A stretch of 64,000 nt of DNA from Escherichia coli (GCF_003018255.1 NZ_CP027440.1), one strand, 5' to 3'; positions 17,422 to 20,131 are shown, counted from the first letter of the stretch. A program made the numbers and translations. Notes: a model not told the origin generated them from the sequence alone.

Positions 17422-19262
<1,841 letters not shown>

Positions 19263-19290
19263 ATCCTTTTCAGCCGCGTAATGGCTTGTT

Positions 19291-19307
19291 TGCAAAGCGG
19301 ATGCCAG
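19291..19307 (-). promoter_or_regulatory. sigma-54 (-24/-12) promoter for the rut operon
   Basis: Minus strand reads CTGGCATccgctTTGCA, matching TGGCAC-N5-TTGCA; located just upstream of rutA. Confidence 0.75.
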
Positions 19308-19370
19308 TTTTTAAAAAGTGAATGTTATTAATGTGTTAATGTTAAGTTGTCTAAAATGCCTGAAAAAAAG

Positions 19371-19386
19371 TGGACTAAACGGTCAA
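19371..19386. promoter_or_regulatory. candidate RutR operator in the rutA-rutR intergenic region
   Basis: tggactaaacggtcaa resembles the palindromic RutR box TTGACCAnnTGGTCAA (imperfect left half). Confidence 0.5.
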
Positions 19387-19492
19387 AACAGTTGCACATA
19401 AAACATGCATTCGTGCGCGATGAGAGTGCAGAAGGTCGAGGCCGGGCGGGGGTTTTGCTATCCTGTTGCCAATCAACAAGAGGGGAGAGCGC

Positions 19493-20131
19493 ATGACGCA
19501 AGGCGCAGTGAAAACAACGGGTAAGCGTTCGCGCGCAGTAAGCGCGAAGAAAAAAGCGATTCTTAGCGCAGCACTGGACACTTTTTCACAATTCGGTTTT
19601 CACGGCACAAGGCTGGAGCAGATCGCGGAGTTGGCGGGTGTTTCAAAAACCAATCTGCTGTATTACTTTCCGTCAAAAGAGGCGCTGTATATAGCCGTAC
19701 TGCGGCAGATTCTCGATATCTGGCTGGCACCGTTAAAAGCGTTTCGAGAAGATTTCGCCCCGCTGGCGGCGATCAAAGAATACATCCGTCTGAAGCTGGA
19801 AGTTTCCCGCGATTATCCGCAGGCTTCGCGCCTGTTCTGTATGGAGATGCTGGCAGGTGCACCGCTGTTAATGGATGAACTGACGGGCGATTTGAAGGCA
19901 TTAATTGATGAGAAATCGGCGCTCATTGCCGGTTGGGTTAAAAGCGGCAAACTCGCGCCGATTGACCCGCAGCATTTGATTTTTATGATTTGGGCTTCCA
20001 CTCAACATTACGCCGATTTTGCCCCTCAGGTGGAGGCGGTGACAGGCGCGACGTTGCGCGATGAGGTGTTTTTCAATCAAACGGTTGAAAACGTGCAGCG
20101 GATTATTATTGAGGGGATTCGACCACGTTAA
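19493..20131 (+). CDS. rutR: TetR-family repressor RutR (212 aa)
   Basis: Track ORF trimmed to ATG at 19493 (MTQGAVKTTGKRSRAVSAKKK), SD aggggagag; TetR HTH (FHGTRLEQIAELAGVSKTNLLYYF). Confidence 0.92.
   Translation: MTQGAVKTTGKRSRAVSAKKKAILSAALDTFSQFGFHGTRLEQIAELAGVSKTNLLYYFPSKEALYIAVLRQILDIWLAPLKAFREDFAPLAAIKEYIRLKLEVSRDYPQASRLFCMEMLAGAPLLMDELTGDLKALIDEKSALIAGWVKSGKLAPIDPQHLIFMIWASTQHYADFAPQVEAVTGATLRDEVFFNQTVENVQRIIIEGIRPR

Follow-up and report, generated by a model that had tools for sequence, protein, structure and literature searches.

The spacer between rutR and rutA in the window (the whole 64-kb stretch of E. coli DNA that was analysed) is the E. coli control region shared by the divergent rutR and rutABCDEFG units, a nitrogen-regulated region that has already been characterised, and the comparison with other species strongly supports a start of rutA translation at the ATG at 19205, 57 bases downstream of the K-12 reference start. 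The 382-aa start at 19262 appears to be an annotation artefact, and its first 19 residues are almost certainly never made. As a whole, the model in which NtrC and sigma-54 activate rutA, RutR damps this activation, and a 75-nt leader precedes a start at ATG 19205 is, in our judgement, very probably correct. The promoter, the RutR box and the NtrC dependence have all been published before, and the result is known biology together with an annotation correction.

The 411 bases around the control region were 100% identical to E. coli Nissle 1917, and the same 411 bases were found in 5,421 of 5,426 complete E. coli genomes. The annotated Nissle 1917 record places these bases between rutR and rutA and shows rutB-G, putA and putP around them. 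The gene rutR, which encodes a TetR-family repressor, occupies 19493-20131 on the plus strand (ATG 19493; Nissle annotation and ORF list) and is divergent from rutA, whose coding sequence as supported here runs on the minus strand over 18114-19205 (363 aa plus stop). The published E. coli rutAp, the sigma-54/NtrC promoter of rutABCDEFG (b1012 operon) with its RutR operator, is the locus found in the window: both its 17-mer promoter motif and its 16-mer RutR box match the published ones exactly, and the DNA shows no differences. The sole discrepancy is the rutA start, giving 382 aa in K-12 NC_000913.3 versus 363 aa in PGAP genomes. For comparison, a RutA search of species-representative genomes was carried out, which yielded 80 Enterobacterales loci with 83-98% protein identity. 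Positions are given relative to the predicted rutA transcription start at 19280, and the promoter motif, the RutR box, the weaker NtrC-like dyad and the three candidate start ATGs were confirmed at their coordinates by a minus-strand read of the window.

The bare motif matches for sigma-54, RutR and NtrC were not above chance in the 64 kb. TGGCAYN5TTGCW gave 1 match versus 0.39 expected, with at least one match in 32 of 100 shuffles; the RutR consensus at up to 3 mismatches gave 2 matches versus 2.98 expected; and the NtrC dyad consensus at up to 3 mismatches gave no match in the control region. Function of these motifs was accepted on the strength of their conservation and of published binding experiments rather than of the motif scores. 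When the upstream regions were aligned, separate conserved blocks were resolved, corresponding to dyad 1 (TGCACnnnnAnnGCGCA at 19430-19414), dyad 2 (yGCCnGnTTTnnGTGCA at 19409-19393), the RutR box (TTTTGACCnTTTAGTCCAC), an A/T-rich block (CAAC..TTAACA...TAATAACA at 19349-19322) and the promoter. Among the most conserved intergenic blocks are the two NtrC-like dyads and the RutR box, and the conservation profile of the rutA/rutR spacer peaks at the RutR box.

The sigma-54 (-24/-12) promoter of rutABCDEFG was located on the minus strand at 19307 to 19291 (CTGGCATCCGCTTTGCA). The GG at 19305/19304 and the GC at 19293/19292 have the exact -24/-12 spacing, the doublets being 10 nt apart, and the 16-mer TGGCATCCGCTTTGCA at 19306 to 19291 shows 0 mismatches to TGGCAYN5TTGCW. 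The motif was present upstream of rutA in 80/80 other Enterobacterales, usually ~100 nt before the MKIG ATG. The identical 17-mer is carried by OS10, a sigma-54 ChIP-seq site tabulated by Bonocora et al. 2015 (PMC4591121), and in Table 1 of that paper the predicted start of OS10 is separated by 19 bp from the centre of the motif and by 18 bp from the long rutA start, the rutA start having the EcoCyc status 'P' (predicted). In vitro, RpoN holoenzyme gave a gSELEX peak of 71-73% intensity in the rutA/rutR spacer (PMC8743547). From the geometry of the -12 GC, the rutA transcription start is predicted at ~19280; a search for a mapped 5' end of rutA mRNA in the searchable literature found none. The predicted start and ATG 19205 together define a putative 75-nt 5' leader of the rutA mRNA at 19206-19280 on the minus strand.

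The RutR operator lies at 19371-19386, centred at -98.5 and 6 bp from NtrC-like dyad 2, and reads TTGACCGTTTAGTCCA on the minus strand (19386 to 19371) and TGGACTAAACGGTCAA on the plus strand, with 11/14 matches to the 16-bp semi-palindrome TTGACCAnnTGGTCAA. The RutR site reported for rutA by ChIP-chip and footprinting is exactly TGGACTAAACGGTCAA, likewise scored 11/14 (PMC2475637), and mutation of the box abolished rutR autoregulation (PMC4325133). The centre of the box was found at ~-88.5 in Yersinia, at -98.5 in Enterobacteriaceae and at -106.5 to -108.5 in Erwiniaceae (loci L003-L082). The RutR box at carAB P1, TTGACCATTTGGTCCA, is bound by the same protein and shows the same 16-bp semi-palindrome with 13/14 matches (PMC2475637), and the rut box of most other Enterobacteriaceae, TTGACCATTTAGTCCA, is closer to the carAB site. 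The two systems differ in that RutR acts positively at carAB, from ~-184.5, whereas at rut a single site represses both divergent units.

Two NtrC-like dyads were found further upstream. Dyad 1 (19414-19430, TGCACTCTCATCGCGCA) is centred at -142 and dyad 2 (19393-19409; TGCATGTTTTATGTGCA on the minus strand, 19409 to 19393) at -121, 21 bp apart, giving two sites that share a helical face and lie more than 100 bp before the promoter. Relative to the consensus TGCACCANNNTGGTGCA, dyad 1 has 4/14 mismatches in the window and 3/14 in many other species, and dyad 2 has 5/14. The outer TGCA(C) and G(T/C)GCA of both dyads are strongly conserved; in dyad 1, TGCAC and GCGCA are conserved to at least 80-90%, and in dyad 2 the right half, GTGCA, is strongly conserved and the left half weakly. 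A third NtrC-like 17-mer, TGCACCnTTTTTGACCA, with 3-4 mismatches, was observed at ~-108 in Kosakonia, Mangrovibacter and Buttiauxella (L009, L012, L014, L034, L035, L038, L043, L044 and others). It arises where the right half of dyad 2 joins the RutR box's left half, and E. coli matches it poorly. Such a site would bring NtrC and RutR into direct competition.

Binding of NtrC to the region has been reported as ChIP-seq peak 4 (94-fold) at ycdMLKJIHG, the old name of the rut operon, in which ycdM is rutA (PMC4066584). NtrC dependence of rut expression is cited in PMC4325133 and PMC10891134, and a figure of the latter, a 2024 paper, shows RutR and NtrC boxes in the region. Comparison of the published tables showed that the ChIP-seq interval (K-12 1073221-1073301, U00096.2) corresponds to about -40 to +40 of rutAp, over the sigma-54 promoter and not over the dyads ~120-140 bp upstream. 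The NtrC peak lies over the promoter likewise at glnK, glnH, astC and ddpX (PMC4066584 peaks against PMC4591121 motif centres). A peak over the promoter is consistent with cross-linking through a DNA loop or with limited resolution. The poor consensus match of the dyads (4-5/14 mismatches) and the offset of the peak count against the NtrC part of the model.

Between the RutR operator and the promoter, a conserved A/T-rich block was found at 19322-19349 (minus strand CAAC..TTAACAcatTAATAACAT; centre ~-55), which is also identified by its TTAATAACA stretch. On the plus strand the block contains TATTAATGTGTTA, which, read by eye, has 1 mismatch to the IHF core WATCAANNNNTTR. The block could be a putative IHF site and/or part of the divergent rutR promoter. 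A sigma-70 consensus scan for the rutR promoter gave no match, and a search for IHF binding data at the block found none. On the other side of the dyads, between dyad 1 and the rutR ATG, a further conserved block, CAGGATAGCAAAA (19453-19465, minus strand), shows 80-90% identity over 40 Enterobacteriaceae sequences and falls in the expected rutR 5' untranslated region.

The arrangement of these elements was compared between families. The 21-bp spacing of the dyads is kept in Enterobacteriaceae (-142/-121) and in Erwiniaceae (about -151/-130), where the entire upstream unit lies ~9-10 bp further from the promoter. Since the distances of the RutR box and the dyads to the promoter shift between families in ~10-bp steps, roughly whole helical turns, the comparison suggests that helical phasing is under selection. 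In Stutzerimonas (Pseudomonadaceae; L084, 1260-1500) the order of elements is that of E. coli, with two NtrC-like dyads first, followed by a RutR-like box (CAGACCAAATGGTCCA), a TTGATAA-containing block at the place equivalent to the A/T-rich block, and a sigma-54 promoter (CTGGCCTGCATCCTGCT). Stutzerimonas differs in its leader, which carries a 7-bp hairpin, CUGCCCG...CGGGCAG, and in its RutA start, MDVGVF. A sequence-only reading of this DNA had called a strong sigma-54 match at 19291-19307 and a RutR-like operator at 19371-19386; the former proved to be the published, ChIP-seq-bound promoter, present in 80/80 species, and the latter is identical to the published ChIP-chip site and conserved. 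The weak NtrC-like dyad that it placed at 19393-19409 is judged real because it is conserved across families and the Stutzerimonas order of elements is identical, but it is one of a pair, and the stronger site at 19414-19430 had been missed.

The promoters glnAp2 and glnHp2 are classic NtrC-activated sigma-54 promoters. The rut region resembles both in having two phased NtrC-like dyads more than 100 bp upstream of a -24/-12 promoter, and may resemble glnHp2 in having an A/T-rich, possibly IHF-type segment between enhancer and promoter. It differs from them in that its dyads are far weaker matches to TGCACCANNNTGGTGCA (4-5 mismatches) and in that a TetR-family operator is inserted between the enhancer and the putative bend.

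We propose that, under nitrogen limitation, phosphorylated NtrC would bind the two phased dyads at -142 and -121, and sigma-54 RNA polymerase would wait at the -24/-12 promoter (19307-19291) as a closed complex. Phosphorylated NtrC would reach the polymerase by DNA looping over the A/T-rich segment, probably bent by IHF, and transcription would proceed from ~19280. Uracil-free RutR, bound at -98.5 with the enhancer on one side and the bend on the other, would dampen activation; lying 6 bp from dyad 2, it would hinder assembly of the NtrC oligomer, or looping, until uracil releases it. From the same operator RutR also autoregulates rutR. The resulting mRNA would carry a 75-nt untranslated leader, and the ribosome would start at ATG 19205 by way of the GAGG 6 nt upstream.

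Several lines of evidence place the rutA start codon at 19205. The ATGs at 19208 and 19205 are in frame (MMKIG) and have gaagagagg upstream; the Shine-Dalgarno (SD) sequence GAGAGG occupies 19212-19217 on the minus strand, and its GAGG ends 6 nt before ATG 19205 and 3 nt before ATG 19208. MKIGVF or MKVGVF was found at the rutA start in 80/80 Enterobacterales loci, with the ATG equivalent to 19205, and AGG was found 5-8 nt before this ATG in 74/80 species, mostly at 6-7 nt, with 6 nt as the mode (54). The SD block shows little or no variation in the leader alignment. The 382-aa annotation adds 19 codons (19206-19262, minus strand, from ATG 19262, MQDAAPRL...), which are judged to be untranslated leader. 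An in-frame stop occurs within the 19 codons upstream of the MKIG ATG in 33/80 loci, and 15 complete E. coli genomes have a TGA at extension codon 13 with rutA annotated as intact at 363 aa.

Protein comparison gave the same boundary. The NCBIfam RutA equivalog TIGR03612, a luciferase-like FMN monooxygenase family, matched over its full length with 724.6 bits versus a cut-off of 498.3, and its positions 1-354 correspond to residues 20-373 in the 382-aa protein. RutA homologues from many Proteobacteria are 360-370 aa long and span no more than 95-97% of the 382-aa query, and the profile and homologue searches returned no homologue or family profile covering residues 1-19. The position of the promoter points in the same direction: if transcription begins ~18 nt before ATG 19262, a 382-aa product is implausible and the SD-preceded MKIG start is the real one. 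The short start gives a leader of 75 nt, close to that of glnA (73); the long start gives one of 18 nt, shorter than in any other of the sigma-54 promoter entries compared from Table 1 of PMC4591121. The sequence-only reading had suspected that the shorter start might be correct, and the MK[IV]GVF conservation, the upstream stops, the TIGR03612 profile and the SD bear this out. It had named 19208 and 19205 as a pair; both are indeed in frame behind the SD, but only 19205 is conserved.

The short start is not new, as it is already used by PGAP and by structure constructs. The 382-aa form is annotated in the curated K-12 record NC_000913.3, and only the K-12 reference keeps it; PGAP annotates rutA of Nissle 1917 as 363 aa with its start at window position 19205, and leaves the leader without annotation in every sampled E. 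coli genome. Among PDB constructs, 5WAN is the 382-aa form, and 6SGG, 6SGL and related entries are 363 or 364 aa. A search of the accessible literature for an N-terminal peptide of native RutA found none.

That the 382-aa start is genuine, or used beside the short one, with a 19-residue extension specific to Escherichia and a few relatives, we regard as highly improbable. Both in K-12 and in the window no stop interrupts the frame between 19262 and 19205, but a rough estimate gives ~40% for an 18-codon stretch remaining open by chance. An in-frame 11-residue peptide can be read in several other genera, but the same nucleotides are out of frame in 28 species, besides the 33/80 loci with stops and the E. 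coli lineage in which the TGA leaves rutA intact. The 382-aa form was soluble enough for crystals (5WAN), so the extension is compatible with folding. A point against the 382-aa start is that residues 1-19 fall outside every family profile and homologue. The only SD-like sequence at 19262 is AAGGA, which stops 1 nt short of the ATG; by established spacing rules this leaves too little room for a normal SD interaction. The extension ORF appears to be open only by chance, and its first codons to be a nucleotide-conserved leader element. The case resembles the over-extended N-terminal calls of early E. coli K-12 annotation, in which a long ORF was taken at its first in-frame ATG and conservation, SD and promoter position indicate a downstream start; it differs in that the rutA extension is conserved at the nucleotide level, which can mimic protein conservation in close relatives.

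A start at ATG 19208 in E. coli (MMKIG, 364 aa) in place of 19205 is unlikely, though less so than the 382-aa start. This ATG is in frame behind the same SD as 19205, and 6SGL, 6TEF and 6TEG were made with the 364-aa form; the spacing to GAGG, however, is 3 nt versus the conserved 6 nt at 19205, and PGAP picks 19205. The codon before the conserved ATG is ATG in 3/80 species and GTG in 20/80, which would allow a start there, but it is a non-start codon in 57/80, so that ATG 19205 is the only universally available start. ATG 19205 is the conserved start, and 19208 is an Escherichia-specific duplicate.

Within the rutA leader, a conserved module was found at 19236-19279 on the minus strand, reading ACGCGG-CUGAAAAGGAUA-UGCAGGAUGCAG-CG-CCCCGU-CUGAC (as minus-strand DNA, ACGCGG..AAGGAUAUGCAGGAUGCAGCGCCCCGU) and beginning at ~+2 of the predicted transcript. 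It is quite possible, if somewhat short of probable, that this stretch (19279-19236) is conserved as a cis-regulatory leader element, RNA or DNA, and not for protein coding. As RNA, it would be a mostly single-stranded platform with two GGA motifs and a short 5'-terminal closing helix, which could bind a CsrA-like protein, an sRNA or the ribosome, or protect the 5' end; as DNA, it would be a downstream operator. Conservation of the core GCAGGAWGCA and of its flanks reaches at least 90% in two families, Enterobacteriaceae and Erwiniaceae, amid neighbouring leader positions that vary freely, and it is independent of frame: among 81 sequences (the 80 loci and the window), 31 have the core in frame 0 with respect to MKIG, 14 in frame 1 and 14 in frame 2, and 22 lack it. 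When the alignment was read by eye, substitutions in the module had no third-position pattern. The strong conservation of the core and its independence of frame argue for a cis-element, and the conservation of MQDAAPR is at the nucleotide and not at the protein level. The extension looked plausible because MQDAAPR can be read in several other genera through this nucleotide conservation. A leader peptide or uORF encoded by MQDAAPR was rejected: the ATG is not conserved, being GTG, CTG, AGC or CGC elsewhere, the SD-like AGGA lies directly against it, and what follows varies between species in frame and in length.

The module was cleanly missing from the Enterobacter hormaechei/cloacae group, Dryocola and some Buttiauxella, whose leaders are 33-36 nt, and it was not found in Yersinia, Ewingella, Acerihabitans or Stutzerimonas. 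Its clean absence in lineages with 33-36-nt leaders indicates modular behaviour, which favours a cis-element; its absence from Yersinia, Ewingella, Acerihabitans, Stutzerimonas and some Enterobacter shows that it is dispensable, which speaks against one. A search of E. coli genomes found the module in single copy, and a repeated element was rejected on this ground. In Buttiauxella gaviniae (L044) the leader is 160 nt long, with a ~58-nt insertion containing an inverted repeat, CCCCAGGAGCTTACTTGAGTAAGTGACTGGGAC, which may be a small mobile or REP-like hairpin. On the plus strand opposite the rutA leader, at 19243-19259, a weak terminator-like hairpin with a T-run (CGGGGCGCTGCATCCTG then CATATCCTTT) was observed, which is probably incidental to the conserved leader sequence.

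Folding analyses were less favourable to an RNA element. A search of Rfam with 19100-19560 at E up to 10 returned only an RsmY fragment inside rutR (10.7 bits versus a gathering threshold of 57, E = 3.4), a chance-level match, and no family match to the module. The whole leader, folded as a single sequence, had z +0.8 and was not more stable than shuffles, and the module, folded per sequence, had a mean z of +0.8 and was less stable than dinucleotide shuffles; a stable riboswitch-like fold was rejected on the latter result. RNAalifold on 58 leaders gave only a 2-bp hairpin. Clade-wise RNAalifold of Enterobacteriaceae gave a short closing helix, and a helix ACGnGG/CCnCGU is predicted in most sequences, which supports an element. 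In the hand-proposed helix one pair, 19279:19242, covaries (A-U in 12, G-C in 42), the other pairs being invariant or mismatched; this lone covariation may stem from one evolutionary event. What is conserved in the module is its sequence and not a stable fold.

Two conserved GGA motifs 9-11 nt apart are present in the module, one of them in a UGC-AGGAU-GCA mini-hairpin, and these also count in favour of a cis-element. CsrA leaders carry two or more GGA motifs, of which one or more sits in a hairpin loop and one usually overlaps the SD. In the rutA leader the 5' U of the mini-hairpin varies without compensation (13 unpaired cells), and no GGA overlaps the SD. The literature search found no link of rutA to CsrA or to sRNA/Hfq, which counts against the element, and the module was matched to no DNA-binding protein either. 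The translation efficiency of rutA-G is raised under nitrogen limitation (PMC9624429), an observation that is compatible with a role for the module and not specific to it. Our best guess, held with low confidence, is that the module is a post-transcriptional control or stability element. The more specific proposal, that the 44 nt at 19279-19236 are an undescribed modular cis-element of the rut leader, or a downstream operator, that has been lost repeatedly, is tentative and we consider it rather doubtful.

Correction of the rutA start affects expression constructs (5WAN being the long form), residue numbering and proteomics databases, and also analyses of 5' UTR length and translation efficiency. 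The regulatory architecture of the rut control region is textbook NtrC/sigma-54 control with an interposed TetR-family repressor, and the conserved leader module is the only part with potential for new biology. If it proved to be a cis-element, it would add post-initiation control of pyrimidine catabolism above NtrC and RutR.
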